DNA of 64,000 nt from Gammaproteobacteria bacterium (GTDB lineage Bacteria > Pseudomonadota > Gammaproteobacteria > UBA4575). The number at the start of each line of letters is the position of its first letter. Position 1 is the first letter of the stretch. Where the stretch lies: contig JBGCDX010000098.1 in NCBI GenBank assembly GCA_045105815.1, positions 5,440 to 69,439 of the forward strand, written 5' to 3'. Positions 6,486 through 56,460 of the stretch are shown in pieces. The translations under genes were made by a program, and so were the position numbers. The notes under the pieces were generated by a model that saw only the letters and a program-made list of their open reading frames with translations, made no database searches and was not told the DNA's origin.

Positions 6486-6941
6486 TTAGCGACGATCTCG
6501 GTTGCGATCTCTATCCCGACGATCTCTATCTCTGTTTGAATCTCGACCCCTATGATTATCATGACCTCGATCATAGTGTCGATCATGTTTTACATGGTGT
6601 CTTCGATCACGGTACTTATCATAATGATGTCGGTCCCGCTTATAGTAACGACGTTCTTTATAATGGTGTCGATCACGATGACCATAATGGCGCTTATAAT
6701 CACGATGATAGTAATGATGCTTCTTGTGCTTGTAATAACGTTTACCATGACCACAACTTGGCCCATGCCTGTGTCCACGGTTATAACCATGTCCGTAATC
6801 GCTGTAACCAATTAGAACACTCCATGGATAATCGTTATAACCCACATTCCCATACACGCCTCCTCTGGCATGCGATGGAGCGGCGGCGGCCAATAACAGC
6901 ATCCCTACTGGTATTAGTATTAGCTTTTGCTTGATATTCAT
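6486..6941 (-). CDS. Secreted histidine/tyrosine/arginine-rich low-complexity protein (function unknown)
   Basis: The ORF track extends to a GTG at 6956. The ATG at 6941 is preceded by a perfect AGGAGA RBS. Signal peptide MNIKQKLILIPVGMLLLAAAAPSHA. The mature part is dominated by H/Y/R/K/D and ends in an RDRDRRDRDRNRDRR tail. Confidence 0.6.
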   Translation of the reverse strand: MNIKQKLILIPVGMLLLAAAAPSHARGGVYGNVGYNDYPWSVLIGYSDYGHGYNRGHRHGPSCGHGKRYYKHKKHHYYHRDYKRHYGHRDRHHYKERRYYKRDRHHYDKYRDRRHHVKHDRHYDRGHDNHRGRDSNRDRDRRDRDRNRDRR

Positions 6942-7355
6942 TCCATATCTCCTCACTACTTTTTGCTATCGATACCCCTATAACGTCTAGCATGGCTAAT
7001 TGGTTGACGCATACCTCAAAACCTTATTATTTTAAGCTTACTGGAATGCTAACTAACTGATAAATATGGTCATTGAATACGTTTAAATTTATCAGGTTTT
7101 TATTTAACCAATATAATTAACATCATTTTCAAATATACGCCGATGCATATTAAGGATGATTCGCTGAGCATCCATCTACACTAAAATGCTAGCCAGATTT
7201 TACGCCTGAAAAATCAATATTCGGTTATTTAAAGATGTCATCGAAATTGGTTAAAATTCAGCGCCAAATGTATTAAGATTCATACAGTTACGGGATACAA
7301 TCGCCTTCTCGGGAATCAAAGCCCATCGATTAATATTTAGGGAGAGAATATTTTA

Positions 7356-8657
7356 ATGACCACTCTTGATTATCCATCAAAAGAACAGCAAGCCGATACA
7401 CACGAGCTTGAACTTGGTCTTGAAATCCCTGTGCTTGAAGCATCTGAAAATGAATTAGCTTCACTTCGTTCAGCCTACGAAGCCGCAAGTTCTATACGTG
7501 ATGAATTACAAGTAAAATTAAAAACGGCTGTGGAATTCTCTAACGAGCAAGCCAAAGTTATAGAAGACATTAAAGATAGCCCATCGGAAGTTGCAGAATT
7601 AAAAGCTTTGCTTGGCAAAGCAACCGAACGAAACAATGTCCTCAGCACTAGTCTAAAAGAACGTGATATTGAAATTCAGGATGCAAATGATGAGATCACA
7701 TTCTTACGTGCAAGTGTTGCTGAACTAGAAGCGGTAAAAACTCAGCTCGATAACGCTGATGAAGATAATCGAGTTATTAGCAAGTCACTACAAGAACGTG
7801 AAACTGAGGTTGCAAACCTCAAGGAAAAAATATCAGTATTGCGATCAAAAATAATTGATATACAAGAAGTCAGAGAACAACTTAAACAAGCCGATAGCGA
7901 TAACCAAATATTAAGCAAAGAACTTGAAGACCAACGCATTCACTTAACTACACGAATTGAAGAGTTAGACAGCCAAATTGAATCGTTTGGCTCAATAAAG
8001 AAAGAATTTAATAAGCGTGGTACTGAGCTGAAACAGTTACAAGATGAATTAGGTCATTCTGATAATAAAATTTATCAACTTACCGGTGAAATTGAACAAC
8101 GCACCGAAAGAGAAAAACTATTACAGCAACAAATTGAAAAAGACATGAAGTCTCTCGAGTTACATGAAGTGAAAATACAGGCGCAAGAGCTTCAGCTAGA
8201 TGAGATGAATAGCTTACGCACCAATCTTATGGATCGAGAAAATCAAGTTACTGAACTCAATCAAAATCTAGAAGCTGAGCGTTCTCGTATTCGCTTACTT
8301 GAAACCGAAATGAGTGAAGCCCACATGGTAGTTAATAGCTTGCAAACTAAAATTGAAAGCGCCAACCAAGCTATACCAACTTTAGAACAAAATATACGTA
8401 TACGTGATGAGAAAATTTCCTCGCTAACAGAAGAAATAGCTGCTCATCAAGAACGGCTTGAAGCTTATATTAATTCTATTAACTTACGTGACAGCAAAAT
8501 CAACTCTCTTGAAAACGTCTTAAATCAGGCTAAAGAGCAGGTAAAACCACTACGCACTGAACTATCCACACAAGAAACTCGCATTCATGATCTTGAAAAA
8601 TTATTTCAAGAAGCCCAAAAGATTGTTCCCATTCCTAAGCGGGAAGAAGTTAAATAA
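7356..8657 (+). CDS. Cytoplasmic coiled-coil protein (no TM, no recognisable enzymatic domain); paralog of the N-terminal part of 27563-29503
   Basis: 433 aa. RBS GGGAGAG upstream. Heptad-rich sequence throughout. The segment EVAELKALLGKATERNN matches EIRELKTLLGQATQRYN in the 27563 protein. Confidence 0.6.
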   Translation: MTTLDYPSKEQQADTHELELGLEIPVLEASENELASLRSAYEAASSIRDELQVKLKTAVEFSNEQAKVIEDIKDSPSEVAELKALLGKATERNNVLSTSLKERDIEIQDANDEITFLRASVAELEAVKTQLDNADEDNRVISKSLQERETEVANLKEKISVLRSKIIDIQEVREQLKQADSDNQILSKELEDQRIHLTTRIEELDSQIESFGSIKKEFNKRGTELKQLQDELGHSDNKIYQLTGEIEQRTEREKLLQQQIEKDMKSLELHEVKIQAQELQLDEMNSLRTNLMDRENQVTELNQNLEAERSRIRLLETEMSEAHMVVNSLQTKIESANQAIPTLEQNIRIRDEKISSLTEEIAAHQERLEAYINSINLRDSKINSLENVLNQAKEQVKPLRTELSTQETRIHDLEKLFQEAQKIVPIPKREEVK

Positions 8658-8791: not shown

Positions 8792-8956
8792 CATGAATTA
8801 CACAAGTACACAATATATTTTACGCACACTATGGCAACTGGTAACTAAACCAGTCTGGCAAAAACCTGTGTGTGAATCTATTTTATGTTGATGTAATAAC
8901 CACAAAATTTAGTTTCATAAGGCCGCAGGTTTTTAACTTGCGGCCTTTTTTTTGGT
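8792..8956 (+). ncRNA. Candidate small RNA or transcribed leader, about 160 nt, bounded by the predicted promoter and a strong intrinsic terminator
   Basis: Contains no ORF. It ends in GGCCGCAggtttttaactTGCGGCC followed by TTTTTTTTGGTTTTTTTT, 16 nt before the EamA start codon. Confidence 0.3.
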
Positions 8957-8971: not shown

Positions 8972-9886
8972 ATGATGTTTGTACGTGCTGCCTACATTGG
9001 TGTGGTACTTATTTGGAGCACCACTCCCCTCGCTATTCAATGGAGTAGCGAATCTGGTGACTATTTATTTGCGATTAGCTTGAGAATGCTGATTGGCTTG
9101 AGCGTGTTGTATGTAATATTTTCTATCACACAATTAAAGCTATCAAGCGCTCGTTCTGCTATGCAGTGCTATGTGACAAGTGGTTTAGGAATTATTGTTT
9201 CCATGACTTGTGTGTACTGGGGTGCGCAATTTATTCCATCAGGATGGATAGCTGTAATTTTCGGACTATCACCCATTAGCACTGGATTGCTATCTGCATT
9301 GTTTATAAATGAGAAAAACATTTCATCATTCAAGGTTGCCGGCATGGTTATGGGCTTATTGGGCTTAATCGTTATCTTTGGGACAAGCAATCAGTTAAAC
9401 GCGCAAGTGTTATGGGGTGTATTTGCAGTATTTGTTAGTACCTTTACTCATTCATTAAGTGCTGTATTAATAAAACGAATAAACGCACCCATTTCAGGTG
9501 TTGAAGCTTCGTTAGGAGGCCTTACTGTGGCAGTACCTATCTTATTACTAAGTTTACTTTTTTCAGGTAAAGCAGTACCTATTGATATGCCAACATATGC
9601 TTGGGCGTCGATATTGTATTTGGGGGTAATTGCAACAGCACTTGGATTTACTTTGTATTACTACATTCTGAAAAACTTAGAGGCAATTCGCGTCTCGATG
9701 ATAACGTTGATTACTCCTGTAATTGCATTACTACTTGGTGGTGTATTGAATAACGAACCACTTACTGCATCAATCTTAATTGGTGTAGCTTTAGTGGTCA
9801 TTGGATTAGCCATGTTTCAGTTCGAAAAAAATATTGGATACTGGTTGAGACAAGTACTAAAAATTCGGCCACTTATGCATAAATAA
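8972..9886 (+). CDS. EamA/DMT-superfamily transporter
   Basis: 304 aa with about 10 TM helices. Shows the tandem EamA-like halves typical of drug/metabolite transporters. Confidence 0.75.
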   Translation: MMFVRAAYIGVVLIWSTTPLAIQWSSESGDYLFAISLRMLIGLSVLYVIFSITQLKLSSARSAMQCYVTSGLGIIVSMTCVYWGAQFIPSGWIAVIFGLSPISTGLLSALFINEKNISSFKVAGMVMGLLGLIVIFGTSNQLNAQVLWGVFAVFVSTFTHSLSAVLIKRINAPISGVEASLGGLTVAVPILLLSLLFSGKAVPIDMPTYAWASILYLGVIATALGFTLYYYILKNLEAIRVSMITLITPVIALLLGGVLNNEPLTASILIGVALVVIGLAMFQFEKNIGYWLRQVLKIRPLMHK

Positions 9887-9934
9887 GTAATACCAAACTG
9901 AAGCTCTTAGATATCTTTGTGGGACGCTCCCATT

Positions 9935-9962
9935 CACCGCAGCCTTAGCTGCGGTGTTATAT
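9935..9962 (+). terminator. Weak terminator-like hairpin after the EamA gene (CACCGCAGC-ctta-GCTGCGGTG then TTATATT)
   Basis: Perfect 9-bp stem. The following U-tract is poor. Confidence 0.35.
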
Positions 9963-10231
9963 TAGAGGTTGTACAGGTTTTATATTATGAGCGTTTCCAT
10001 TAATTACTATTTAATACAGTAAGTTAGGCTAACCACGATAAATCACTGCTTTTATTGTACAATACATGTATAAGTTATTTATGTAGTAGGTATATACATT
10101 ATGTGTACATTTTACTACGATGGTCTCAAGAAATCTCAAATATGCCGTTATACATAGTCATATAAAAAGATTTCAACTTTTTAAGATAATTTTACAATAT
10201 CTGTACAATGATTGTACATAAGGAGACTAAA

Positions 10232-11374
10232 GTGAAAAAATTACTCATTAACGCAAGGTACTTTTCAGCACCTCTGCTAATACTGGGAGCCTTGTTTGGT
10301 GTTCTCGCCGGCGGACCCTGGGTATGGACGGGTGTAGCATTACTCGGTGCTGCGATCATCATCGATACATTGGTAACCCGTGCCACCCCCGGCGCAGGTT
10401 TCGATGAAGACGGTAATACTAATGCAATTGTACCGTTACAGAATGGCATGATGTACGGAATGCTCGCCATCTTCATATTGTTGCAAATCGCATTAGGATG
10501 GCGCATTTCACAATATATGGATGCTGTGCCAATTGCGAACGCAACCTTGTTAGGTCTTGCTATTCAAAACGGAATAACAGGCTCGCAGTTAATCGGCGCA
10601 GTATTGTCTACAGGAATTTTTGCTGGTATCGGCATTATCTACGGACATGAGCTTGCACATACTAAAGGATTTAGTTTTGTAATCGCCCGTTGGATGATGG
10701 CTTTAAGTGGTAAAGCTCATTTCTGCTACGCACATGTATACAACCATCACTTAGAACTTGGACATCAAGACGATCCTGCTACCGCTCCACGAGGCAGAAG
10801 CTTATTTGCACATTACCCACTCTCAGGTATTGGTCAAAGTAAGTTTTTATTCCTAATGGAAAAGAGGCGTTTAGAAAGATTAGATGTGCCTTTCATATCA
10901 TGGAAAAACAGATGGCTACGTGGCTACGCCATGACATTACCAACTGTATTTCTATTTTGGTTCGCTGGTGGATGGATTGGTATTACATGTTTAGCTGGTG
11001 TTTGGTTTATCGCAAACTTCGAATTAGAGGCGCTTAACTACCTTGAGCACTATGGATTAATTCGTGAAAAAGGACAGCCAATTGACTATCGCCACAGCTG
11101 GGATAACAGCACTGCATTCACTAGTTGGTTTTTCATTGAGATTGGTCGTCAAGCTGACCACCATGATCGTGGAGAAACCCATTACTGGGAATTAGATGAA
11201 GTAGGTGCTCCTGATTGTGGCCGCGGTTACTTCACGCTGTTTGCCTTAGCGTTAATGCCAAAGGTTTGGCATAAGTTTATTAATAAGAAACTTAACGACT
11301 GGGATAACGAAATGGCATCTGAAGGTGAACTTAAAATAGCCAAAGAAATGAATACACAAGCCGGATATTCATAA
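10232..11374 (+). CDS. AlkB-type integral-membrane alkane/fatty-acid hydroxylase (non-heme diiron, His-box family)
   Basis: His boxes GHELAHTKG, NHHLELGH...DPATAPRGRS, NYLEHYGL and RQADHHDRGETHY align with the P. putida AlkB motifs HELGHK, EHNKGHH, NYIEHYGL and LQRHSDHHA. I prefer the GTG at 10232 because AGGAGA sits 5 nt upstream. The ATG at 10208 has no RBS. Confidence 0.7.
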   Translation: MKKLLINARYFSAPLLILGALFGVLAGGPWVWTGVALLGAAIIIDTLVTRATPGAGFDEDGNTNAIVPLQNGMMYGMLAIFILLQIALGWRISQYMDAVPIANATLLGLAIQNGITGSQLIGAVLSTGIFAGIGIIYGHELAHTKGFSFVIARWMMALSGKAHFCYAHVYNHHLELGHQDDPATAPRGRSLFAHYPLSGIGQSKFLFLMEKRRLERLDVPFISWKNRWLRGYAMTLPTVFLFWFAGGWIGITCLAGVWFIANFELEALNYLEHYGLIREKGQPIDYRHSWDNSTAFTSWFFIEIGRQADHHDRGETHYWELDEVGAPDCGRGYFTLFALALMPKVWHKFINKKLNDWDNEMASEGELKIAKEMNTQAGYS

Positions 11375-11411
11375 CCCCCTCGTGTTGAGTCCATATTTCA
11401 ACACATAACCT

Positions 11412-11437
11412 GACCCCCTCTATGGGGGTCTTTTTTT
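11412..11437 (+). terminator. Rho-independent terminator (GACCCCC-tctat-GGGGGTC, then TTTTTTT)
   Basis: Lies 38 nt after the stop codon of the AlkB-like gene. Confidence 0.65.
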
Positions 11438-11460
11438 AACTATATTTTTTTCTCTACTAT

Positions 11461-11859
11461 ATGAAAATGCAATCAAGCGAATCAAAACTTAACTTCCCAA
11501 AGGATTCACCTCATCTTGTATTTTATGATGACCGCTGTTCATTATGCACAGCAGAGATTAATCATTATCAAAAACTAGAGACATGCCATCCTATACAATG
11601 GATTGGGATCCATAAAAATCGAGATATTGTGCAACAACATAGCTTTACACAAAAGCAACTTTTAGAACGACTGCATGTAGTGCAAGGAAATGGAGAAACG
11701 CATATAGGAGCCTCTGCATTTATTACCATATGGCTTTCTATTAAACGTTATAGAGTGGTTGGACTAATGGTGAAAAAATTAAGGCTTACACCAATACTAA
11801 ATTATTTTTACGAACCCTTTGCGAAGCGGCGCTACCAGAAACGTATTTGTAAAATCTAG
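11461..11859 (+). CDS. DCC1-like thiol-disulfide oxidoreductase family protein (DUF393)
   Basis: 132 aa. Carries the hallmark VFYDDRCSLCTAEINHYQ (FYDGxCxLC-type motif). Confidence 0.75.
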   Translation: MKMQSSESKLNFPKDSPHLVFYDDRCSLCTAEINHYQKLETCHPIQWIGIHKNRDIVQQHSFTQKQLLERLHVVQGNGETHIGASAFITIWLSIKRYRVVGLMVKKLRLTPILNYFYEPFAKRRYQKRICKI

Positions 11860-12473
11860 ATTGAAGTATTCGCTCCTAATAGTGGCGTTTTAAGGTCAAC
11901 GATATCTGCTAACAATGAATTACCCGAAAGAAACAAACACTCTTCTTTTCCCATCTTAATTTCAAGAGATTGTTGGAGTGAACGTGCTAACGCATTTGCG
12001 CCTAACCTTTGATAATACGGTAGTTGTTGCATAAAAAATGGTAATTTTTCTACCAAGGGAGTTTCATTATTAACGCTGTGAATAAAGGCTTGTTCAAGAT
12101 CATTTACAGCCGTAACCACATCAGAATAGTCCTGCCAATCTAATGATAGGTCCAAACTCCAGCTCATATCTTTATTTAAGCTGCATTCAGAAAAATATAC
12201 TCCCGGATCATGTGTTATCCATGCCTGTGGCTCTATTAAACTCAATTTCCATTCTTGCTTTTTATAATATAAGTAATAAGCCTTACCTATGACGGGCTTA
12301 AAGCCATATTTAGCACCTAGCACCAAAGTAGAAGTAAAGTAATCTGCTAACCACTGATGACTGTTTTTAGCCTGTACATTTATAGGTGTAACAGCACGCA
12401 GATCATCAACAACACCAACTACACCCTTGCCTTGTGGGTTACTTATTTTTTGAATCTGTCCTGACATGTACAT
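11856..12473 (-). CDS. Hypothetical protein, last gene of the RR-HK-GT operon
   Basis: 205 aa with no recognisable motif and no TM. Co-directional with the upstream glycosyltransferase gene, 14 bp away. Confidence 0.5.
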   Translation of the reverse strand: MYMSGQIQKISNPQGKGVVGVVDDLRAVTPINVQAKNSHQWLADYFTSTLVLGAKYGFKPVIGKAYYLYYKKQEWKLSLIEPQAWITHDPGVYFSECSLNKDMSWSLDLSLDWQDYSDVVTAVNDLEQAFIHSVNNETPLVEKLPFFMQQLPYYQRLGANALARSLQQSLEIKMGKEECLFLSGNSLLADIVDLKTPLLGANTSI

Positions 12474-12486
12474 AATTTTACCAATA

Positions 12487-13248
12487 TTAAACCCGGATAT
12501 TGAAAATTTGGTCTGCTTTTAATACCTGTATACACTTTTCCATTGAGTTTGCACTGTACGCATCATCTTCATACAGAGAGTTACACAAATTAGCTGCAGC
12601 TATGGGTTGGGTTGATTTTCTTTGGAAAAGATCTAATGCCTCACCTCCACCATTTGTAATATCTTTTATAACCAATGGGCTAAGCATTCCTGCGCTTTCA
12701 AGAACAGGGCATTGAACTACATTATGAATAGCAGTTAATAATTTTGGGCCAATATATTGAGGCGGCATGTTGCCCATATTTTTTAATACCAAACGTTCTG
12801 CTGTATCGATATAGAACTCTAAAAATGGATTACCTTTTTTAAACATCATAAATGCATTATGCACTTTGATATACGCAATCAGTTTCTTCGGATTATCATG
12901 TGCACTTTGAACCCATACTTCTCGCCCAACTGCATAATTTTCATCAGGTAGAACAAATTGTGCAGGTAAAAATATTAGGAAATCTGCATCGCACCATACA
13001 ACCACCTCATACCCATCTTTCAAATATTTTTTTAATGCCAGCAAACGTGCTAAATCAGTAGCAATCACAATCTGATTTTTAGTCTTATTAAGAACATCAT
13101 TAGATACATAATCAAATAACTCATCACCAATGAATTTATAATCATAGTTATTAATTGAAGCCCAACTACGAACTGAATCTATACATATTTGTAGCCATTG
13201 CGCGGGCAGCGGTTGCCGATGGGACTGAAGAACAAGAGTTTTAGGCAT
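12487..13248 (-). CDS. DXD-motif glycosyltransferase (Gly_transf_sug-like)
   Basis: 253 aa. IATDLARLLALKKYLKDGYEVVVWCDADFLIF matches the sugar-binding/DXD region of OCH1/capsule-type glycosyltransferases. Start lies 4 bp after the histidine kinase stop. Confidence 0.55.
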   Translation of the reverse strand: MPKTLVLQSHRQPLPAQWLQICIDSVRSWASINNYDYKFIGDELFDYVSNDVLNKTKNQIVIATDLARLLALKKYLKDGYEVVVWCDADFLIFLPAQFVLPDENYAVGREVWVQSAHDNPKKLIAYIKVHNAFMMFKKGNPFLEFYIDTAERLVLKNMGNMPPQYIGPKLLTAIHNVVQCPVLESAGMLSPLVIKDITNGGGEALDLFQRKSTQPIAAANLCNSLYEDDAYSANSMEKCIQVLKADQIFNIRV

Positions 13249-13251
13249 GAT

Positions 13252-14316
13252 CTAAAGTGAGATAATAACTTTTAGTCCTGGCTGGTTATCTTCCAGTGAT
13301 ATAGAAGCTTTGTGCAACTTCAAAACCGCATTGACCAGACTTAATCCCAAGCCTGATCCTTCTATATGTTGCTGCTCTTGATCACGATAAAAGCGATCAA
13401 AAGCTTTTTCAACCGAACCATGAGGGATGCCAGGTCCATTATCTTGAATAATAATTATTTTTTCATTACTACTATTTTCAAGAGAAATTTTTATCACGCC
13501 ATTATGCTGAGTAAACTTAATCGCATTATCTAGAAGATTTGCTATCACTTGAAAAAATAAATCACGATCTCCCTTATAACTAATTGCTTTACTATCGACC
13601 GTAAATGTTTGGTTTTTTTCTTCAGCTAGGGGCATATATAGATCAACTGCATCTTGCACCACTTTTCCCAGATCAAATTCCTCAAACCTAGAGCCCTGAC
13701 GCCCTGATTCCAAACTAGACAAACTCAGTAATGCGTTAAATGTTTTTAATAAACTATCAACGTCTTTAACTAATGATGCTTTTCCTTCAATCTCATCATA
13801 TTTTTCCAAACCACTTTTATTTGAATTCTGCTCAAGTTTGTTTCTTAATCTTGCAAGTGGCGTACGTAAATCATGTGCAACCGTATCTGTAATATGTTGC
13901 ACACCTTCCATTAAGGTTTCAATTTTTTCAAGCATTTCATTCAAGACGTCTCCCAGAAAACTAAGATCGTCCCAGCGTGAATCAATTTCGATTCGCTTAG
14001 TTAAATCACCTGTTGTAATTATTTCTTGCGCCGTATTCGCTATACGATTAATGCGTGTTACCACAAAAACACTTATCAGATAACCCATCACACCCATGAT
14101 TAGCAAAGCTAATATGCTGATAACACTAAGTAGCACAAAAGCTTGGCTCAGCTCTGTTTCACTCTGCTGATAGAATAGATATATAGAAATGCTCAATGCA
14201 ATTACAGCAAATGCCAATAAAACTGCAAATAATGTTGCGACTTTAAAGCTAGAGCTGCTTCTATAATGCCTTTTTTTATTGCTTTTAAGTGTCGTCAATG
14301 ATGTAGCCTGCGCCAC
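13252..14316 (-). CDS. Sensor histidine kinase (two N-terminal TM helices with a minimal periplasmic loop, HAMP, HisKA, HATPase_c)
   Basis: H-box VAHDLRTPLARL. G-boxes IQDNGPGIP and GSGLGLSLV. The ORF begins at a GTG that overlaps the RR stop by 32 nt. Confidence 0.85.
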   Translation of the reverse strand: MAQATSLTTLKSNKKRHYRSSSSFKVATLFAVLLAFAVIALSISIYLFYQQSETELSQAFVLLSVISILALLIMGVMGYLISVFVVTRINRIANTAQEIITTGDLTKRIEIDSRWDDLSFLGDVLNEMLEKIETLMEGVQHITDTVAHDLRTPLARLRNKLEQNSNKSGLEKYDEIEGKASLVKDVDSLLKTFNALLSLSSLESGRQGSRFEEFDLGKVVQDAVDLYMPLAEEKNQTFTVDSKAISYKGDRDLFFQVIANLLDNAIKFTQHNGVIKISLENSSNEKIIIIQDNGPGIPHGSVEKAFDRFYRDQEQQHIEGSGLGLSLVNAVLKLHKASISLEDNQPGLKVIISL

Positions 14317-14962
14317 GCATAGTTTTAATGAGTTGTTTATCAGAGTTTTTATCTATTTTTTGTCGTAAGCGACTTATATGCACATCAATCACATTTGTCT
14401 GTGGATCAAAATGATAGTCCCATACATATTCTAGTAACATAGTGCGCGTTACGATTTGCCCTTTATGTCTTAAAAGGTATTCAAGTAATCTAAATTCTGT
14501 TGCTTGTAGAGAGACTTCTGCACCATTACTTTTGACTTTACGTGTCAATAAATCCAGCTCAACGCCTTGTGCTGATAAACATGTTTCTACATCTGCAGAC
14601 TTTCTATTTCTTCTATCTAGCGCTTCAATTCTTGCCAACAGTTCAGAAAAGGCAAAAGGTTTAACTAAATAGTCATCACCACCCGCTCGCAAACCCTTTA
14701 CACGGTCATCCACTTCACCAAGAGCACTGAAAATTAATATTGGCGTTATATTGCCAGCACCTCGTAACGTTTTAATAATTGTGAGGCCATCTATACCTGG
14801 AAGCATTCTATCAATAAGTAATACATCGTATTGCTCGGTTGTGCTTAAAAACAAGCCATCATTACCATCGGCTGCAGTATCTACAACATGACCTATTTCA
14901 GTTAGGCCGTTACTTACATAATCAAGTAGTTCTTGGTCATCTTCTATACAAAGGATACGCAT
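14285..14962 (-). CDS. OmpR-family response regulator (receiver plus winged-helix)
   Basis: Trimmed to MRILCIEDDQELL (ATG at 14960-14962). The longer ORF adds an unlikely hydrophobic leader. C-terminal trans_reg_C-like domain ...LLEYVWDYHFDPQTNVIDVHISRLRQKI. Confidence 0.9.
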   Translation of the reverse strand: MRILCIEDDQELLDYVSNGLTEIGHVVDTAADGNDGLFLSTTEQYDVLLIDRMLPGIDGLTIIKTLRGAGNITPILIFSALGEVDDRVKGLRAGGDDYLVKPFAFSELLARIEALDRRNRKSADVETCLSAQGVELDLLTRKVKSNGAEVSLQATEFRLLEYLLRHKGQIVTRTMLLEYVWDYHFDPQTNVIDVHISRLRQKIDKNSDKQLIKTMRGAGYIIDDT

Positions 14963-15003
14963 AATAATCACTATGATACTGGCTACAGACAAATATCCAA
15001 TGT

Positions 15004-15017
15004 TTGTAAAATTACAA
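15004..15017. promoter_or_regulatory. Palindrome TTGTAAAATTACAA in the divergent RR / lipid-modification-cluster intergenic region
   Basis: Perfect 6-bp arms with a 2-bp centre. Lies 42 bp upstream of the RR start codon (14962) and 81 bp upstream of the cluster start (15098). Confidence 0.3.
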
Positions 15018-15097
15018 AAATTTAATGCTCGGTTAAGGTCAATTTTAAGCAAGAAAGTACATACTAGAGGGGATATTTAACACACAAACCAATAACC

Positions 15098-15667
15098 ATG
15101 CAGATAAAGCACTTAAGTTATTCATTACTTTTACTATGGTTTTTTTCATCGGCATCATCGGCGACTAGTAACCAAGTATTCAGTCCATTACCTAACCAAG
15201 TGCTAGAAAGATGGAATAATTTTTCATTCGTTGGTGAAACCACGTTACGTCGTTATGGATTCCACGTGTATGACGCTTCTTTTTGGATAATGGGAGATAA
15301 ATCAGACAATTTTAGCTCTTCTGATATTTTATCTAACCATTCGTATGCTTTAAGCATTACCTATGCACGAAAAATAAGTGCACAACAATTATTGTCTAGT
15401 ACAAAAAAAGAATGGCAAAGACTAGGGTTTGCGAAGCGATACCCTCTCAATGCATGGTTGATCATGTTAGAAAACATTTGGCCAAGTGTTGAGAAAGGAG
15501 ATCAATTAATCGTGGTAGTAACTACGCAAGGAAAAACAACATTCTTTAATAAAAGCAATTCACTGGGCACCATTGATGATTCAAAATTTGGCCCAGCATT
15601 TTTATCTATCTGGCTAGACGAAAATTCACGCTTTAAGAAGAACCGTGAGGAACTATTAGGTGAGTAA
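15098..15667 (+). CDS. Chalcone-isomerase-like family secreted protein
   Basis: 189 aa with a signal peptide. VGETTLRRYGFHVYDASFWI resembles the Chalcone_3 family core. First gene of the eight-gene overlapping cluster. Confidence 0.5.
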   Translation: MQIKHLSYSLLLLWFFSSASSATSNQVFSPLPNQVLERWNNFSFVGETTLRRYGFHVYDASFWIMGDKSDNFSSSDILSNHSYALSITYARKISAQQLLSSTKKEWQRLGFAKRYPLNAWLIMLENIWPSVEKGDQLIVVVTTQGKTTFFNKSNSLGTIDDSKFGPAFLSIWLDENSRFKKNREELLGE

Positions 15668-16208
15668 ATTACAATTAATAAGACATTTAACTAGTTTTTT
15701 AGCAATAGTACTGATTTTAGGCTGCAGTACTACCACTTCAGATTATCAAGATACTCAACCTGAATTTGACCTTAAAGAGTATTTCACTGGTGAACTCAAA
15801 GGCTGGGGCTTAATAAAAAATTATCAAGGGAAAGTTACCAAACGGTTTACCGTAGAAATGACTGGCACATGGAAAGAAAACAAAGGTGTCTTATATGAAT
15901 TATTTACATACCAAGATGGCACTACACAAGAGCGTACGTGGTACTTAACGAAACAAGATAACAATATAAATACTGGTACTGCTAGTGATGTTGTCGGTGA
16001 AGCATCAGGCACACAAGAAGGTTTTTCATTTAATTGGAATTATGACTTGTTATTTGAGTCAGATGGCAAACAAATTCAAGTTCATTTACAAGATTGGTTA
16101 TACCAAGTAGACGACCATGCCGTTATTAGCGAAGCAAAAATTAAAAAGTTTGGTATCAATGTTGGCGAAGTGATCATATTTATACTCAAACAGGATGCAC
16201 AACAATGA
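15660..16208 (+). CDS. DUF3833-like lipoprotein
   Basis: GTG start overlaps the upstream gene by 8 nt. Lipobox LILGCSTTTS. The EYFTGELKGWG motif region is typical of DUF3833 (from memory). Confidence 0.5.
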   Translation: MSKLQLIRHLTSFLAIVLILGCSTTTSDYQDTQPEFDLKEYFTGELKGWGLIKNYQGKVTKRFTVEMTGTWKENKGVLYELFTYQDGTTQERTWYLTKQDNNINTGTASDVVGEASGTQEGFSFNWNYDLLFESDGKQIQVHLQDWLYQVDDHAVISEAKIKKFGINVGEVIIFILKQDAQQ

Positions 16209-16630
16209 GCTCACCACAAATTGAACAATTCATAAAAAATATGAATTCCATCCAACATGAAAATGCTAAACATGTGTTAGCAAATATATATACCGATGAT
16301 GTTGTTTTCATTGACCCTGTAAAAACTATAAAAGGTGTAGAAAACTTAACAAAGTACTTCGAAGACCTTTATAAAAGCGTCTCTTCTTGCCATTTCAAGT
16401 TAACTAATAATGTACCTAATAATAATCGCTATTCATTGGAATGGATAATGACTCTACAACATAAGAAAATATCAAATAATCAAGAGATTGAGTTGAATGG
16501 AGCATCATTTATTGAATTTATCGACGATAAAGTTTGTTACCACCGTGACTACTATGATCTCGGCGCTTTAGTTTATGAACGTATTCCGATACTTGGCTCA
16601 GTAATTAAAAAAATTCGTCATGCTATCTAA
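16205..16630 (+). CDS. NTF2/SnoaL-like family protein
   Basis: 141 aa. Composition is compatible with the alpha+beta cone fold. Overlaps the upstream gene by 4 nt (ATGA). Confidence 0.55.
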   Translation: MSSPQIEQFIKNMNSIQHENAKHVLANIYTDDVVFIDPVKTIKGVENLTKYFEDLYKSVSSCHFKLTNNVPNNNRYSLEWIMTLQHKKISNNQEIELNGASFIEFIDDKVCYHRDYYDLGALVYERIPILGSVIKKIRHAI

Positions 16631-18700: not shown

Positions 18701-19406
18701 ACATCAGCGCTATGCACCTCGCGTGCATGCATTCACGTATTCATTATTTATGATGTATGTGGATTTAGATGAATTACCTACATTATTCAACAAACATTTT
18801 TTATGGGCAGTAAATAAAACCAATTTGGCCTCATTTCATCGCAATGATCATCATGGCGACAATGTGTCTCTTGCTAATTCAATACGTGAGCTAGTTTTTG
18901 ATAAATCTGGAGAAAATGTAGAAGGACCAATTAGACTGCTTACTCACTTTCGTTATTTTGGCTATGTATTCAATCCTATCAGTATGTACTTTTGTTATGA
19001 CGCTGCTGGAGAAAATGTGACCCATGTTGTAGCTGAAGTAATGAATACACCTTGGAAAGAACAACATTGTTATGTGCTGTCAAACAAACAGCATGATCAA
19101 GTTATTTCAGCTAAACATAAAAAAGAATTTCATGTGTCTCCTTTTATGCATATGAATATGGAGTACCACTGGAATATTCATACCCCTGACCAACATATGA
19201 ATATAAATATTGAGAATTGGTCTGATAATAAAATGGTTTTTGATGCATCCATGTACTTAGAAAAGATTGAATTATCCACCTCTAACTTAAGAAATGTTTT
19301 ATTTAATTTTCCTTTAATGACATTAAAGGTTACTACGATGATTCATTTTGAGGCACTAAAACTTTGGATCAAGGGGATCCAATATATACCCCACCCTAAA
19401 AACTAA
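18669..19406 (+). CDS. DUF1365 family protein
   Basis: N-terminus MKSCIYKGRVRHQRYAPRVHAFTYSLFMMYVDLDELP matches the DUF1365 signature. Overlaps the upstream gene by 32 nt. Confidence 0.75.
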   Translation: MKSCIYKGRVRHQRYAPRVHAFTYSLFMMYVDLDELPTLFNKHFLWAVNKTNLASFHRNDHHGDNVSLANSIRELVFDKSGENVEGPIRLLTHFRYFGYVFNPISMYFCYDAAGENVTHVVAEVMNTPWKEQHCYVLSNKQHDQVISAKHKKEFHVSPFMHMNMEYHWNIHTPDQHMNINIENWSDNKMVFDASMYLEKIELSTSNLRNVLFNFPLMTLKVTTMIHFEALKLWIKGIQYIPHPKN

Positions 19407-19418
19407 CAGGTTTCAAGA

Positions 19419-20672: not shown

Positions 20673-20679
20673 ATAAATA

Positions 20680-27562: not shown

Positions 27563-29503
27563 ATGTCTTATTTGATTTCCAATTTCATTTTTGTATTGGC
27601 CGCAACTTTTTTTCTTGGCCTAGGAATGGGATGGTTTATGTGGGGCCGCTTAAAAAAGCGAATAGTGTCACTTGAGAATGATTGGCGCAATCGTTTTATT
27701 ACTTTAGATGATGACTACCAATTATTAATTAAAGATTTCAATGAAGTTGAACTTTTACTTAAAGATCGAATAGAACATATCAATTCCATTAATGATGAAA
27801 AAAACGATTTAGCTATAAAGTTAAATTCTGCAACAAACCTTAATAGCAACACTGGTAATGAGATAGAAGAGTTAAAAAGCCAATTAAGCAAAACCACTAC
27901 ACATCATCGCATCATTAGCAAAGAACTCAATGAAACGAAAAGAGAATTAGAAACCCTTAACAGCACACCTGATGAAATAAGAGAACTTAAAACCCTTCTA
28001 GGACAGGCCACTCAACGTTATAACAATAACGGTCTTGAGTTAAATAACAAAAATGAAGAACTAATATCATTACAGAATCAGTTAGAAAGCACTAGCAAAC
28101 AAACCAGCTCACTAAAAAATGAGTTAGACCATTTGCGTACAAAACTCTTAAATCGTGATAAAGACTTTGAAACTCAAGCCTTATTATTTACAGATACACA
28201 AAACAAACTACGCAATAGCGAGTCTGCATTACAAACCGCTCAAATAAAACTTGATGCAGGTGCTAATCAAAGCATCACAATTAGCACTCAATTAAAAGAG
28301 AGAGATGAGAAAATCTTAATTTTAGAAAATCAGGTTAAGCTCGTATCTAAACAATACAAAGATACTCAATTAGAATTAGCAGACACCAAAAAACATGTGC
28401 CTGCGTTAAATAATGAAATTAATTCTCTACGTGAGCGTGTCCCATCACTTGAGAGCTCTCTCAAGCAACGTGACTCAAGTATTGCGGCACTCGAGAACGA
28501 AGTTAATCGCTTGGCTACAGACTTTCCACCTTTACATGACGAAATAGAAACTCATAAAAAACAAGCTGATGATTTAAAGCAACAATTAAATACTTTGCAG
28601 CTAAGTGTTCCTGATCTTAAAAGCACTATTGCAGCTCGCGATGCACATATACGTGAATTAGAAGTATTTATGAAAGATGCTCAGAATGCCATTCTAAAAC
28701 CTGCAAATGGAAAAAATGGCAATGGCAAAACTGTAAATGGAAATGGTGCCACAAACGGTAATGTTGTTCACATTAATGGCACATCTAAATCTAACAAAAA
28801 TGGATCCAGCCAAGCCAATGGGTCTTCTAAAAACAAAGTTGCTACACATATCAATAATAAAGCTAAACAAAATAATTCAGCTAAACTAGTAGCTACAAAC
28901 AATAAAGCTGCAGCCACAGCAGTCAAACCAAAAATTAAACCTTATGGGTTAAAGAAGCCAACTCGAAAGCCTGATGATTTAAAACTGATTACAGGGATTG
29001 GTGAAACACTAGAAAAAACGTTACATAAGTGCGGAATTTTCTATTTCGAACAAATCGCTAGCTTTAACTTAAAAGATGTTAATACAGTAGATCAATTACT
29101 TAATTTCAGAGGCCGTATTGATCGCGACGATTGGATTAAACAAGCAAGAGTTTTAATGCGTGCTAACAAAAGTACCAATACAGCCAAAAACACTAATAAT
29201 GCTGCTACTAAAAAAACCACTCAAAGGCGCGTACCTAAACGCAAACCTAAAATGAAGCCACTTGGCATGAAACGACCCAGTGGTGAACTAGATGATTTAC
29301 AACTCATCAATGGTGTTGGGCCAACACTTGAGAAAAAACTTCACCGACTTGGAATTTATCACTATGAGCAAATTGCTCATTTAACTGCAGAAGATATTGC
29401 AACCATAGATAGCAAACTTAAGACCTACAAAGGTCGTTTAAAGCGTGATAAATGGCCTATGCAAGCACGTAGATTACATAAAGAATTTTATGCAGGATTG
29501 TAA
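27563..29503 (+). CDS. Membrane-anchored coiled-coil protein with two C-terminal DUF4332/H3TH-like helix-hairpin-helix modules
   Basis: N-terminal TM FIFVLAATFFLGLGMGWFMW. About 330 aa of coiled coil, paralogous to 7356-8657. An Asn/Gly/Lys-rich linker. Tandem repeats DDLKLITGIGETLEKTLHKCGIFYFEQIA... and DDLQLINGVGPTLEKKLHRLGIYHYEQIA.... Confidence 0.6.
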   Translation: MSYLISNFIFVLAATFFLGLGMGWFMWGRLKKRIVSLENDWRNRFITLDDDYQLLIKDFNEVELLLKDRIEHINSINDEKNDLAIKLNSATNLNSNTGNEIEELKSQLSKTTTHHRIISKELNETKRELETLNSTPDEIRELKTLLGQATQRYNNNGLELNNKNEELISLQNQLESTSKQTSSLKNELDHLRTKLLNRDKDFETQALLFTDTQNKLRNSESALQTAQIKLDAGANQSITISTQLKERDEKILILENQVKLVSKQYKDTQLELADTKKHVPALNNEINSLRERVPSLESSLKQRDSSIAALENEVNRLATDFPPLHDEIETHKKQADDLKQQLNTLQLSVPDLKSTIAARDAHIRELEVFMKDAQNAILKPANGKNGNGKTVNGNGATNGNVVHINGTSKSNKNGSSQANGSSKNKVATHINNKAKQNNSAKLVATNNKAAATAVKPKIKPYGLKKPTRKPDDLKLITGIGETLEKTLHKCGIFYFEQIASFNLKDVNTVDQLLNFRGRIDRDDWIKQARVLMRANKSTNTAKNTNNAATKKTTQRRVPKRKPKMKPLGMKRPSGELDDLQLINGVGPTLEKKLHRLGIYHYEQIAHLTAEDIATIDSKLKTYKGRLKRDKWPMQARRLHKEFYAGL

Positions 29504-55060: not shown

Positions 55061-55801
55061 ATGAGTAAACCCTTAATCATATTGTTAGGTATAATACTGA
55101 TAGCTATTCTCGGCTATTTTTGCATCTATAAACACAGTCCTGAAATTCAAAGTGACATTGATACAAGAACTAATGCAGCTCTTGCTGAACAAGGATTAGA
55201 ATATATTGAAGTTGACACAGATGGCCGTGATATTGTGCTGACTGGTGAGGTACTAAACGAGACAATCAGACAGCAAGCAGATGAACACGCAAAAAATGTC
55301 CCTGGTGTGCGCATCGTTGATAATCAATTAACTATTACTGCTGCTGCACCAGCACCAGAAATTATCATAGAAAAGGAATCTGAAGTTGAGGAAGCAATAG
55401 AAGCACCTAAACTTGAAGCTTTACCAGAATATACTTGTCAACAAGAATTCAACACATTACTTGATGCGAGTAAAATTAACTTTTCAACCAATAGCGCAGA
55501 AATTGATATATCAAGTACTAACTTATTAATTAATTTAATCGATGTTGCTAATCAATGTCCTGAAACAAATATTGAAATTTCTGGCCATACCGATTCCCGT
55601 GGTAGTGACGATTACAACCTACGCTTGAGCCAGTCACGGGCTACGTCCGTTATGAAATATTTAATTAACAACGGCATTGACTCTAATCGATTAAGAGCTG
55701 TAGGTTATGGTGAAACCAACCCTATTGCTGATAACGAAAGTGATGAAGGTTTAGCAAAAAATAGAAGAATAGAATTTAACGTAGAGGGGCTTTCACAATG
55801 A
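55061..55801 (+). CDS. BON-domain plus OmpA-like peptidoglycan-binding protein with N-terminal TM anchor
   Basis: TM helix LIILLGIILIAILGYFCIY. BON-like stretch ...DIVLTGEVLNETIRQQADEHAKNVPGVRIVDNQL. OmpA_C motif GHTDSRGSDDYNLRLSQSRATSV...NRRIEF. Confidence 0.85.
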   Translation: MSKPLIILLGIILIAILGYFCIYKHSPEIQSDIDTRTNAALAEQGLEYIEVDTDGRDIVLTGEVLNETIRQQADEHAKNVPGVRIVDNQLTITAAAPAPEIIIEKESEVEEAIEAPKLEALPEYTCQQEFNTLLDASKINFSTNSAEIDISSTNLLINLIDVANQCPETNIEISGHTDSRGSDDYNLRLSQSRATSVMKYLINNGIDSNRLRAVGYGETNPIADNESDEGLAKNRRIEFNVEGLSQ

Positions 55802-56460
55802 GCTATTTAATTACCCAACTTTGGATCTGCTTACTAATTGCTGCTGCAATCGGTGCAATTATTGGATACTGGTTAGCTAAGTCATCATGTCGCAGCAAAC
55901 TTGATGATTTAGATGCTAGCTGGCGACACAAGCTAGAAGATAACAGCAATGAGCACTCACGAAAATTAGCAGAACTCAGTACATCTGCCGTTACACCAGC
56001 CGCTGTAGCAGCGGTGTCTACTCCACCTGTGGCAGCCATAACGGAGCAGTCGAGTTATGAAGTGGAAGATATAGAAGGGATTGGTAAAAGTTATGGAAAA
56101 AAACTTCGCGATATGGGTATTTCTACAACTGAACAATTACTCAATACATGTTTCAACCTAGATGGACGCATAACCGTAGCCGAGCAAATAGGTATTGAAG
56201 ACTTTGTAGTACGCAAGTGGGCTAGCATGGCTGACTTGATGAGGATAAATGATATCGAAGGTCAATACTCTGAGCTAATGGTCTACGCTGGAGTTGATTC
56301 AGTGCAAGAACTTGGTCAGGAAAATGCTAGCGCACTTCATAGTAAATTATCTACTGCTAATGCTGAACAAAACCGCGTCAAGGTTATCCCTGACGAAACT
56401 ACTCTTGCGCAAATGATCAACCACGCTAAGAGTCTTAGAGAGGTAATACAAGATACTTAA
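55798..56460 (+). CDS. DUF4332/H3TH-like domain protein with N-terminal TM anchor, translationally coupled (ATGA) to the OmpA-like gene
   Basis: TM helix. The C-terminal domain EDIEGIGKSYGKKLRDMGISTTEQLL... and a second HhH-like repeat match the modules in the 27563 protein. Confidence 0.6.
   Translation: MSYLITQLWICLLIAAAIGAIIGYWLAKSSCRSKLDDLDASWRHKLEDNSNEHSRKLAELSTSAVTPAAVAAVSTPPVAAITEQSSYEVEDIEGIGKSYGKKLRDMGISTTEQLLNTCFNLDGRITVAEQIGIEDFVVRKWASMADLMRINDIEGQYSELMVYAGVDSVQELGQENASALHSKLSTANAEQNRVKVIPDETTLAQMINHAKSLREVIQDT

Follow-up and report, generated by a model that had tools for sequence, protein, structure and literature searches.

'MSYLI'-anchored helix-hairpin-helix proteins and their BON+OmpA partners: a candidate link between cell wall, inner membrane and nucleoid in an uncultured marine bacterium

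Introduction

The only characterized homolog of the C-terminal helix-hairpin-helix (HhH) modules described here is PhaH of Caulobacter crescentus (NF045508, HhH-domain phasin). Its N-terminus binds PHB granules, and the review PMC13052382, citing Salinas et al. (2023; pmid 37487601), reports nonspecific DNA binding by its HhH module. Halomonas PhaC2 carries either a COG3743 domain or a histone-H1-like tail at the same position (PMC8686332). The same module of about 70 aa is found on a flexible linker in Urf1, protein-O and protein-3h of RC-LH1 and at the extended C-termini of NuoE, L21 and S2 from Alphaproteobacteria. Urf1 is membrane-anchored and has the module on its cytoplasmic tail. The module (Urf1/protein-O type) is not resolved in the RC-LH1 maps, and the authors of the RC-LH1 structures call the function of the Urf1-type module obscure. 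We found the literature nearly silent on DUF4332 (an incidental mention in full text), on COG3743, on the NuoE C-terminal extension and on the combination of BON, OmpA and HhH domains.

Two other groups of membrane proteins are similar in layout. ZipA-type bitopic tethers have an N-out/C-in anchor, a long linker and a C-terminal ligand-binding domain, which in ZipA binds FtsZ. In MotB/Pal/ArfA-type and BON+OmpA anchors, the domains stand behind one N-terminal TM helix. Little is understood of how bacteria place the nucleoid with respect to the envelope. To our knowledge, PhaM, PhaF, PhaH, AlgP and McdA/B, the known nucleoid tethers, link organelles rather than the cell wall.

Here we describe three proteins, P1, P2 and P3, encoded in one window (the whole stretch of 64,000 nucleotides that was analysed). 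The source is an uncultured marine bacterium, and all three were previously "hypothetical proteins". The ORFs of P1 (7356..8657, 433 aa), P2 (27563-29503, 646 aa) and P3 (55798-56460, 220 aa) were verified and the coordinates in a preliminary description are exact, as is the ATGA overlap that it noted at P3; these genes and all features given below are on the + strand. By comparison of their parts, P1, P2 and P3 are members of one modular family. Even on this ordinary reading alone, three hypothetical proteins are reclassified into one family with defined parts.

Results

Domain organization of P2

P2 starts with a TM anchor ('MSYLISN…GW') and a juxtamembrane helix (LExxWR) at residues 1-45 (27563..27697). 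Residues 46-380 (27698..28702) form a coiled-coil rod with 28/56-residue periodicity, in which the motif hPxLxxxLxxRDxxIxxLE is repeated and which is the part paralogous to P1. It is followed by an Asn/Gly/Lys-rich basic linker (residues 381-458, 28703..28936) that is poorly conserved (41% identity), HhH module 1 (residues 459-535, 28937..29167), a second basic linker (residues 536-565, 29168..29257) and HhH module 2 (residues 566-646 and the stop codon, 29258..29503). The net charge is +17 over residues 381-470, mostly due to the first linker, and +11 over residues 536-577. The C-terminal ~265 residues, both HhH modules included, have a net charge of about +33. The anchor, linker and two C-terminal modules by which the preliminary description had distinguished P2 from P1 are real features of the protein, and the modules are nearly invariant among P2 orthologs: mean pairwise identity is 81% in module 1 and 85% in module 2, the highest in P2, and 56% in the rod. 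The consensus is YGLKKPxxKPDDLKLIxGIGxxLEKTLHKCGI…GRIDRDxWIKQA for module 1 and LGMKRPxGELDDLQLINGVGPxLExKLHRLGIYH…GRVKRDKWPxQA for module 2; the module HMM gives them 144 and 135 bits, respectively. Both contain a unit of ~70 aa, DDLxxIxGIGxxLExxLxxxGIxxxxQIA…GRIxRDxWxxQA.

In NCBIfam, the P2 modules matched NuoE (E 6e-50), L21 (2e-36), S2 (1e-33) and PhaH (4.4e-29, model positions 126-231 of 234). Each match consists of two P2 stretches aligned to the C-terminal end of the model. Among PDB chain sequences, module 2 matched those of Urf1 (9wqv_a) at E 3.9e-19 and of protein-O (8yy9_O) at E 2.3e-15. These profile and sequence matches identify the P2 modules as HhH modules of the NuoE/L21/S2/Urf1/PhaH type, COG3743-like. 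DUF4332 and COG3743 had both been proposed as the profile affiliation of the modules. Membership in the COG3743/H3TH HhH group stands, but P2 gave no match to Pfam DUF4332 at E values up to 0.1, and Cdd1 and HHH_5 matched below threshold only. P2 as a whole was rejected as PhaH (102 bits vs the full-length cut-off of 250), NuoE (NF009040; 171 vs 514), L21 (NF008915; 126 vs 281) and S2 (NF008966; 117 vs 526), all of these scores coming from the common module.

P2 resembles PhaH in layout, each having one end on a cellular structure and an HhH end, the latter reported to bind DNA in the case of PhaH. In place of the granule-binding N-terminus, however, P2 has a TM anchor followed by 335 aa of coiled coil, and it carries two modules. 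It shares with Urf1 the membrane anchorage and the module on a cytoplasmic tail, whereas Urf1, NuoE, L21 and S2 have no coiled coil and start with a U-shaped two-helix TM domain or with enzyme or ribosomal parts. An exact-sequence lookup of P2 gave no match; a homology search found P0011, which is 100% identical. In the P2 orthologs P0034 and P0035 the modules are wholly absent, and the P2 rod must therefore have some module-independent function. P2 has genes for a solute symporter and for an ABC-F ATPase as its neighbors. An AF2 model of the C-terminal 192 residues (mean pLDDT 50.9) shows a four-helix pattern in each module at low confidence; it was kept out of the fold search because of this pLDDT and of a shallow, near-identical alignment.

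P3 and its DUF4332 domain

In P3, residues 1-63 (55798..55986) comprise the anchor ('MSYLITQ…GYW') and juxtamembrane helix, modelled by AF2 as a single helix over residues 2-63. Residues 64-87 (55987..56058) form a short disordered linker rich in Ala, Val and Pro (pLDDT <50 at residues 68-81). Residues 88-220 (56059..56460) form an acidic DUF4332 domain of two tandem four-helix HhH units. P3 scores 104.7 bits (E 4.7e-30) with Pfam DUF4332 (PF14229; gathering cut-off 23.2 bits), residues 93-213 covering positions 1-122 of the 122-position model. P3 is therefore a full-length DUF4332 member with an acidic, tandem double unit, whereas the P2 modules are single and basic. The P2-module HMM gives P3 10.9 bits, for the hairpin alone, and hhalign aligns one P2 module with one DUF4332 half (91% probability, E 1e-6). 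By this alignment, the P2 modules and the P3 DUF4332 domain are distantly related. The preliminary description had counted one shared module three times; the two copies in P2 hold, while the third, in P3, is a distant relative.

DUF4332 domains of the anchor family described below are consistently acidic, with a mean net charge of -8 (n=101), in contrast to about +5 for the P2 modules. A Foldseek search of the P3 model against PDB returned nothing at E <=0.001. The best structural matches of the modelled DUF4332 domain, a tendency only, are the protein-binding acidic repeats of NusA (AR1/AR2, (HhH)2 domains); NusA is a soluble transcription factor with no detectable sequence relation to P3. 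For the acidic DUF4332 domain of P3, a basic protein is a more likely ligand than DNA.

The 'MSYLI' anchor family and the BON+OmpA cassette

Alignment of the P2 and P3 anchors with hhalign (98.9%, E 1.7e-17) indicates that the two N-termini ("MSYLI…GW") are homologous, a relationship absent from the preliminary description. An anchor-only profile search of public data found 1332 protein clusters, the match always being N-terminal. Of the best 100 hits among these 1332 that are 170 aa or longer, 83 have an HhH module or DUF4332 at their end (module 50, DUF4332 43). We define here the previously undescribed 'MSYLI' anchor family as an anchor, a variable spacer and an HhH end: the TM helix reads M-[SGN]-Y-L-I…G..(I/F)GW, K/R are absent before it and present after it, and the protein ends in an HhH module or DUF4332. 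P2 and P3 both have this anchor, and P1 has none. Family members are 171-961 aa long and the spacer is conserved in neither sequence nor length; P0038 uses a different repeat.

In P2 and P3, the TM helix is preceded by no K/R and followed at once by three to four, and both proteins are predicted to be N-out/C-in with their bulk in the cytoplasm. With this predicted topology they are not a periplasmic or outer-envelope scaffold, which corrects the envelope-associated scaffold suggested earlier. P2 and P3 are like ZipA by description in that one N-terminal TM helix is joined through a long spacer to a small binding domain in the cytoplasm, but there is no sequence or domain relationship.

The gene directly upstream of P3 (55061..55801) encodes a 246-aa BON+OmpA protein (Pfam OmpA 6.9e-23, BON 2.1e-10) and its stop codon overlaps the P3 start codon (...caATGAgc...). 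Its N-terminus has a Lys ahead of the TM helix and is a signal-anchor, with a periplasmic BON domain and an OmpA-like domain of the peptidoglycan-binding kind behind, as in MotB/Pal/ArfA-type and BON+OmpA anchors. The partner is, however, a single-pass HhH protein and not a MotA/ExbB/TolQ-type channel. The TM helix of the BON+OmpA protein is without Asp, and an ion-driven stator is therefore unlikely. The protein reached no NCBIfam equivalog cut-off. The coupling of P3 to this gene, proposed earlier, extends to distant relatives. Among eight hand-sampled anchor-HhH loci outside the P2 family (P3 and seven others), a BON+OmpA gene is directly upstream in all eight, the two genes overlapping or standing <=4 nt apart. 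Anchor-HhH genes as a rule follow a BON+OmpA gene and are coupled to it in translation, and we define this two-gene cassette, previously undescribed, here. P2 lies outside it, there being no adjoining BON+OmpA gene. That P2 and P3 occur together is seen in the window and suggested by five protein pairs whose longest contigs are identical in length.

A possible link between wall, membrane and nucleoid

The predicted topologies suggest an arrangement in which the BON+OmpA protein would be N-in/C-out and hold peptidoglycan in the periplasm, and the anchor protein would be N-out/C-in with its HhH domain projecting into the cytoplasm. The two probably pair via their TM helices, as we infer from gene adjacency. 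The length of the spacer would set the reach: P3 has ~25 residues of disordered chain, whereas in P2 a coiled coil of ~335 residues is extended by the 78-residue basic linker. P2 would be a solitary copy that left the cassette and now serves as a membrane-to-nucleoid tether or spacer. It is read as a nucleoid tether because its tail carries about +33 and two HhH modules of the PhaH DNA-binding type; DNA binding by these modules is carried over by analogy from PhaH as one characterized homolog. The probable role of the family is to hold something in the cytoplasm, in all likelihood DNA, at the cell envelope. The function, earlier described as not evident from sequence, is not entirely opaque, given that the PhaH module is reported to bind DNA (PMC13052382).

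The full reading of a cell-wall-linked inner-membrane cassette, a solitary membrane-nucleoid tether (P2) and a soluble rod derivative (P1) may well be correct, although we stop just short of expecting it. If so, it provides a candidate direct link from wall to membrane to chromosome, made of a peptidoglycan binder and a cytoplasmic HhH domain on an adjustable spacer and conserved across >1000 protein clusters. It would also give a working hypothesis for the orphan DUF4332 and the C-terminal domain of NuoE, L21, S2 and Urf1. A wider version of the proposal is unlikely as a whole. It would make the BON+OmpA and 'MSYLI' HhH proteins an undescribed, widespread mechanical link across the envelope, running from the sacculus via the inner membrane to the nucleoid or else to a different polyanion or machine of the cytoplasm, with the interchangeable spacers (25 to >600 aa of coil) acting as rulers of the distance from the wall. 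Duplication of the ruler gene in this lineage would have given P2 as a free-standing long tether and P1 as a soluble rod that tunes it.

Some observations run counter to a DNA tether. The DUF4332 domain of P3 is acidic and structurally closest to protein-binding repeats, and the cassette's own HhH domain may not bind DNA. P2 has no BON+OmpA neighbor, and two of its orthologs do without modules. The module is also present on NuoE, L21, S2 and Urf1, where a tethering role is not obvious. The acidity of the anchor-family DUF4332 and the occurrence of the module on such unrelated large machines (with Urf1 in RC-LH1) would fit if the HhH ends were protein-protein adaptors recruiting some protein or machine of the cytoplasm and keeping it at a defined distance from a wall-fixed point in the membrane; the acidic DUF4332 of P3 might then bind the basic modules of P2. 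We regard such adaptors as somewhat doubtful, since the only characterized homolog of the P2 module type is reported to bind DNA, the P2 tail is strongly polycationic and the gene context of P2 points to no partner protein.

P1 and its kinship with P2

P1 is a soluble, strongly acidic coiled-coil protein (net charge -31). It is a rod-only paralog of P2, with no anchor, linker or HhH module, and ten orthologs are all 427-434 aa long. Comparison with an 88%-identical ortholog (L001) gave a dN/dS of 0.045. The dS of this pair is already ~1.3 and more remote pairs would saturate; amino acid identity per region was used for those instead.

The rods could be taken for cytoskeletal filaments of the crescentin/FilP kind, or for a membrane lattice, that shape the cell or its internal membranes, the HhH modules being accessory. 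Their long heptads with 28-residue repeats are in keeping with this, as are the strong purifying selection on P1 and the module-free persistence of P1 and of two P2 orthologs. The crescentin rod model (PF19220, Rod_CreS) does detect both proteins, but at 17.1 bits for P1 and 29.6 bits for P2 against a cut-off of 100, and P1 and P2 were rejected as crescentin rods. A match above threshold, P1 with the PUMA coiled-coil (PF24627; 43.3 bits, cut-off 30.1; P2 25.0 bits), leans the same way as the heptads, but at this size on a 74-position model it is indistinguishable from generic coiled-coil similarity (SMC reaches 48 bits). The best-conserved part of P2 is the modules and not the rod, and the lack of conservation between anchor and HhH end across the family (171-961 aa) is what one would expect of a spacer and not of a particular polymer. 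Cytoskeletal filaments are, in our view, distinctly unlikely. P1 and P2 were also rejected as SMC, Rad50 or MukB proteins: P1 scored 39.7-48.2 bits and P2 40.0-43.6 bits against cut-offs of 567-729, with matches confined to the coiled-coil arms.

A defence reading was rejected as well, P1 and P2 matching defence-system libraries by generic coiled coil only. The more specific proposal that the BON+OmpA/anchor-coil pair senses phage at the envelope for defence, as Zorya does, is highly improbable: a cell-wall binder with a long intracellular rod does recall ZorAB, and the OmpA domain matches ZorB models (E 2e-14), but the ZorB matches span the generic OmpA/MotB domain only, the partner is no ZorA-like multi-pass protein and Asp is missing from the TM helix, the examined loci are free of nearby effector genes for a nuclease or helicase, and P1, P2 and P3 gave no specific PADLOC match.

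Generic models also complicate the comparison of the two rods. Single coiled-coil models (SMC, JetC) reach 30-48 bits on P1, and raw pairwise BLAST E-values were therefore discarded as proof of paralogy, which was decided by controls and intermediates. With the P1-family HMM, real members of the P2 family scored 43-236 bits (P2 itself 48.5), compared to <=16 for reversed and <=4 for shuffled sequences. The second coiled-coil protein of the window scored only 6.5 bits. After bridging sequences had been taken out, hhalign of the P1 and P2 families gave a score of 144 (E 1.4e-19) over 293 colinear columns; reversed controls gave 33 and shuffles in 7-column blocks 25-36. The recurring motif is in the same register in both rods. 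The L015 protein (634 aa: anchor, coil and two modules) aligns with P1 over 421 aa at 36.6% identity (E 6e-65) and with P2 along the full length at 36%, and thus bridges the two families by sequence. We do not claim it as the unduplicated ancestor because rearrangement has made it ambiguous where the gene lies with respect to the P1 and P2 slots. Judged by these controls and intermediates, P1 and the P2 rod are true paralogs and not compositional look-alikes, in agreement with the kinship proposed in the preliminary description. That composition and heptad periodicity alone, without common ancestry, produced the likeness has almost nothing left to recommend it: pairwise identity is merely 22-27% and the SMC/JetC scores on P1 come near the 48.5 bits above, but this is already contradicted by the collapse of the reversed and shuffled scores, the colinear alignment with its shared register, intermediates at 37% identity with common end modules and the conservation of P1 and P2 as neighbors.

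In L009, L011 and L014 the P1 and P2 orthologs are ~5 kb apart in conserved order. Joint occurrence of P1 and P2, in conserved synteny, is confined to one small group of MAGs, a clade of uncultured Thiotrichales-like bacteria. An earlier suggestion of lineage-specific expansion thus applies to the P1/P2 duplication and not to the whole architecture, given the 1332 clusters with the anchor. P0037 is P1-like and soluble and has retained one module; MatE is nearby, as for P1. The series of architectures shows P1, as far as sequence can trace it, to derive from an ancestor with anchor, coil and module, the anchor having been lost before the module. Inspection of the sequence beyond the P1 stop codon for a leftover of the lost module found none. 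If P2 is a tether as proposed, P1 most likely co-assembles with the P2 rod or competes for it and so modulates the tether; alternatively, it may persist as a free rod. P1, P2 and their relatives would then form a dissection series from full-length through anchor-less with one module to rod only. P1 itself looks monocistronic. Just five in-frame codons precede it, and a terminator-like hairpin (8919..8947) with a 13-bp stem followed by a T run lies after the gene.

Genes encoding P1, P2 and P3

P1, a soluble coiled-coil protein (7356-8657, plus strand, 433 aa), P2, an anchored coiled-coil protein with two C-terminal modules (27563-29503, plus strand, 646 aa), and P3, an anchored DUF4332 protein (55798-56460, plus strand, 220 aa), are encoded in the window as set out in the preliminary description. 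The ATG of P3 indeed overlaps the TGA of the gene upstream (55061-55801; …caATGAgc…), whose product matches BON (E = 2e-10) and OmpA (E = 7e-23) in Pfam. The window belongs to the MAG of an uncultured gammaproteobacterium, and a homology search returned P0011 ('MAG: hypothetical protein AB8B92_09110'), which is 100% identical to P2. Judged by its homologs, P1 is a genuine, constrained gene, because dN/dS is 0.045 against an 88%-identical orthologue and 8 of 10 homologs span 427 to 434 aa. A hidden P1 anchor is impossible because only five in-frame codons precede the ATG. A strong terminator-like hairpin is located 3' of the gene (8919-8947).

Paralogy of P1 and the P2 rod

P1 is related by descent to the coiled-coil part (rod) of P2, as had been proposed, and a likeness of composition only was rejected, on the basis of reversed and shuffled controls, a colinear hhalign alignment, a shared motif in the same register and intermediates. 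Pairwise BLASTP (E = 7e-9 and 9e-8; 22 to 27% identity) is weak proof when taken alone, because generic SMC and JetC models reach 30 to 48 bits on P1. An HMM built from P1 plus P0001-P0010 scored 43 to 236 bits on 27/27 real P2-family sequences, against at most 16 bits on reversed and at most 4 bits on shuffled controls; the other coiled coil in the window, an SH3-and-anchor protein, gave 6.5 bits. With both bridging sequences taken out, hhalign of the two families gave a score of 144 over 293 colinear columns (99.2% probability, E = 1.4e-19), compared with 33 for reversed profiles and 25 to 36 after 7-column block shuffles. Shuffling of 14- and 28-column blocks still left scores of 46 to 94, as expected if the signal consists of common 14- to 28-residue motifs and their order. 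Both rods carry hPxLxxxLxxRDxxIxxLE with a 28-residue periodicity in the same register and end in …IxxLExxxxxAQxxhxxP.

A 2.67-Mb MAG chromosome (L015) encodes a single 634-aa protein with the MSYL anchor, the rod and both modules. Over 421 residues its rod is 36.6% identical to P1 (E = 6e-65); at full length the protein is 36% identical to P2. P0037 (511 aa) is soluble, has a P1-like N-terminus and retains one C-terminal module; its gene lies near a MatE gene, like that of P1. The contig also carries the P2 orthologue P0036, ~6 kb away. In conclusion, P1 is derived from an anchor+rod+module gene that lost first the anchor and then the module, and no module remnant was found 3' of the P1 stop codon. 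The P2 orthologues P0034 (416 aa) and P0035 (409 aa), on 14-kb and 28-kb contigs, consist of the anchor and the full rod and end shortly after it without linker or modules; this is a second, independent module loss inside the family.

P2 end modules and the DUF4332 domain of P3

The ~70-aa helix-hairpin-helix (HhH) modules of P2 had been assigned to DUF4332. Pfam does not bear this out, giving sub-threshold Cdd1 and HHH_5 matches only. In NCBIfam the modules match C-terminal extensions, two stretches in each model, of alphaproteobacterial NuoE (6e-50), L21 (2e-36), S2 (1e-33) and the phasin PhaH (4e-29), with P2 far under the whole-protein cut-offs of these models. The modules are PhaH-type in identity. 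Among PDB chain sequences they match Rhodovulum Urf1/'protein-3h' (9wqv_a, 3.9e-19) and Dinoroseobacter 'protein-O' (8yy9_O, 2.3e-15). Both cryo-EM studies modelled the N-terminal TM part alone, and what the compact C-terminal domain does is described by their authors as obscure or unknown (PMC12079452, PMC13066640). Caulobacter PhaH is reported to bind DNA nonspecifically via its C-terminal HhH domain and so to spread PHB granules along the nucleoid (PMC13052382, citing Salinas et al. 2023; also PMC12678847); this is the sole functional datum for the module type that we found in the literature searched. Halomonas PhaC2 variants have a COG3743 match in one strain and a histone-H1-like DNA-binding match in another, and both were taken by the authors as DNA-binding properties (PMC8686332).

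Across P2 orthologues the modules are the best-conserved part (mean pairwise identity 81 to 85%, against 56% for the rod and 41% for the linkers). The net charge is +17 over residues 381-470, 0 in the module 1 core, +11 over residues 536-577 and +5 in the module 2 core. Modules and linkers together form a polycationic tail.

P3 carries a full DUF4332 (Pfam, 104.7 bits). Its AF2 model (mean pLDDT 91) shows a long helix (2-63), a disordered linker (64-87) and a compact domain of eight helices, arranged as two units of four. The second half of DUF4332 can be aligned with a single P2 module (profile-profile probability 91%, E = 1e-6), and this alignment takes in the final W/I-x-x-A-K/R-x-L helix; with the first half only the hairpin aligns, and the P2-module HMM gives just 10.9 bits on P3. 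The P2 modules are basic, in contrast to the consistently acidic DUF4332 domain of the P3 family (mean net charge -8, pI 4.8, n = 101). Because of this weak match and the opposite charge, the earlier wording that the same module is used three times is to be revised: the HhH units are related, but P2 has two basic single units and P3 one acidic double unit.

A shared anchor and the BON+OmpA cassette

The preliminary description overlooked that P2- and P3-family proteins share a homologous N-terminal stretch of ~57 residues (hhalign 98.9%, E = 1.7e-17), in which MSYLI is followed by a TM helix with GW at its end and then by LExxWR. Since TM helices can yield spurious profile matches, an anchor-only profile (55 positions) was searched alone against 1.84 billion representatives. 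With E limited to 1e-3 it matched 1332 proteins, and with E limited to 1e-10 it matched 129. In all but two of 150 matches listed, the profile aligned to the N-terminus. A PhaH-type module (50) or DUF4332 (43) forms the C-terminal end of 83 of the 100 listed matches that are at least 170 aa in length; these proteins are 171 to 961 aa long with one to four HhH-domain copies. The spacers of different subfamilies are unrelated. They seem to grow through internal repeat expansion, because the spacer of P0038 (L020, 5001-6521) consists of three copies of a distinct ~50-residue repeat (…NLARxHxRLTEVxxxxxxLxxWxxVFQTKLxKTKSDYxQLR…).

All eight anchor-HhH genes inspected outside the P2 family directly follow a BON+OmpA gene; the two genes either overlap or are separated by no more than 4 nt. 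The eight genes encode P3 (ATGA overlap), P0066, P0120 and P0118 (66 to 35% identical to P3, with different flanking genes), P0038 (anchor, coiled coil and one module), P0183 (191 aa, one module), P0245 (coiled coil and a module) and P0221 (917 aa, two DUF4332 domains). P2-family genes are the exception, being solitary between a solute symporter gene and an ABC-F gene. The anchor-HhH proteins form one modular family, and the cassette with a peptidoglycan binder is conserved. We are highly confident of this family and of the P1/P2 paralogy taken together. The literature searched contains no account of the anchor family, its strict tie to HhH domains, the cassette or the P1/P2 decay series; BON, OmpA, DUF4332 and the COG3743/PhaH HhH module are families already known by name.

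The anchors have no K/R ahead of the TM helix and 3 to 4 K/R in the next 15 residues (22 P2-type and 100 P3-type sequences), and are therefore predicted to be N-out/C-in. The BON+OmpA partners have K/R ahead of the helix and a BON domain straight after it, which predicts N-in/C-out, the placement that an OmpA-like peptidoglycan binder needs. With the anchors predicted N-out/C-in, the HhH domains of P2 and P3 would be cytoplasmic. To our knowledge, all other known carriers of the module (NuoE, ribosomal proteins, phasins) are cytoplasmic.

Convergent to P3, the gene at 56523-57149 (minus strand) encodes an 'SH3 and anchor' protein (TIGR04211, 129 bits; cut-off 65 bits) with SH3b, a coiled coil and, at the C-terminus, a TM helix. 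In L017, an unannotated 197-aa minus-strand gene occupies this slot, and TraB/GumN-family, FAD/NAD oxidoreductase and molybdopterin genes come next, just as they do in the window. The TIGR04211 protein may be a further envelope-associated coiled-coil protein kept beside the cassette in this clade.

Possible function

The BON+OmpA protein and the anchor protein, both single-pass, would pair within the membrane. The wall-bound partner would fix the complex, and the spacer would determine how far into the cytoplasm the anchor protein holds its HhH domain. The homologous anchor of P2 may let it dock on this same BON+OmpA protein. Given the long rod and the polycationic double-HhH tail, P2 is most simply read as a membrane-to-nucleoid tether or spacer; DNA tethering itself is a tentative proposal, about evenly balanced at best. 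P1 (soluble, of fixed length, net charge -31) may pair with the P2 rod, and the acidic domain of P3 may bind a basic protein, not DNA; these roles are more speculative still.

One main rival is that the HhH end domains are protein adaptors, a view supported by the NusA-like fold and acidic character of DUF4332. The other, that the P1/P2 rods are cytoskeletal, would accord with the absence of modules from two P2 orthologues and all P1s, but Rod_CreS is far under cut-off and the wider anchor family shows no conservation of its spacers. A Zorya-like defence role was rejected after a defence-model search. On the tether reading, we count the family as a variant of the known HhH-based cellular tethers; since this function is one that we infer, the significance of the family is moderate.

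Gene order of P1 and P2 in relatives

Synteny is kept in L009, L011 and L014, in the order MatE (-), His-rich (-), P1 (+), four minus-strand genes, P2 (+) and ABC-F (-). P1 and P2 are ~5 kb apart in these loci, and the window has ~14 kb more genes between them (8972-24912). The extra genes include an EamA-type transporter, a fatty-acid desaturase, a two-component system (13252-15052), a conserved chalcone-isomerase-like/DUF3833/SnoaL/SDR/amine oxidase/DUF1365/cyclopropane-fatty-acid-synthase-like/DUF2878 cluster (15098-21231) and a PhoX alkaline phosphatase (22996-24912). The relatives are labelled uncultured Thiotrichales. L014 (CAXMUG010000079.1) was deposited as 'uncultured Mycobacterium sp.'; it has the MatE, His-rich, P1 … P2, ABC-F synteny at 69 to 94% identity to the window and is almost certainly a mis-binned gammaproteobacterial contig. 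In L003 (ENA ERZ25767047 ctg37138, 191 kb), the P1 orthologue, nuclease and solute-symporter genes are in the usual order, and the 13-kb locus stops within the symporter gene, just short of the usual P2 slot.

The His-rich gene (6486-6956, minus strand) encodes a 156-aa protein with a signal-peptide-like N-terminus and then a low-complexity region extremely rich in His/Arg/Tyr/Asp/Lys (…HRHGPSCGHGKRYYKHKKHHYYHRDYKRHYGHRDRHHY…). A Pfam search with this protein gave no match. It is kept directly upstream of P1 in L001, L003, L011 and L014 (64 to 89% identity). Two plus-strand ORFs overlapping the gene (6536-6934 and 6552-6815) look like by-products of its repetitive composition.
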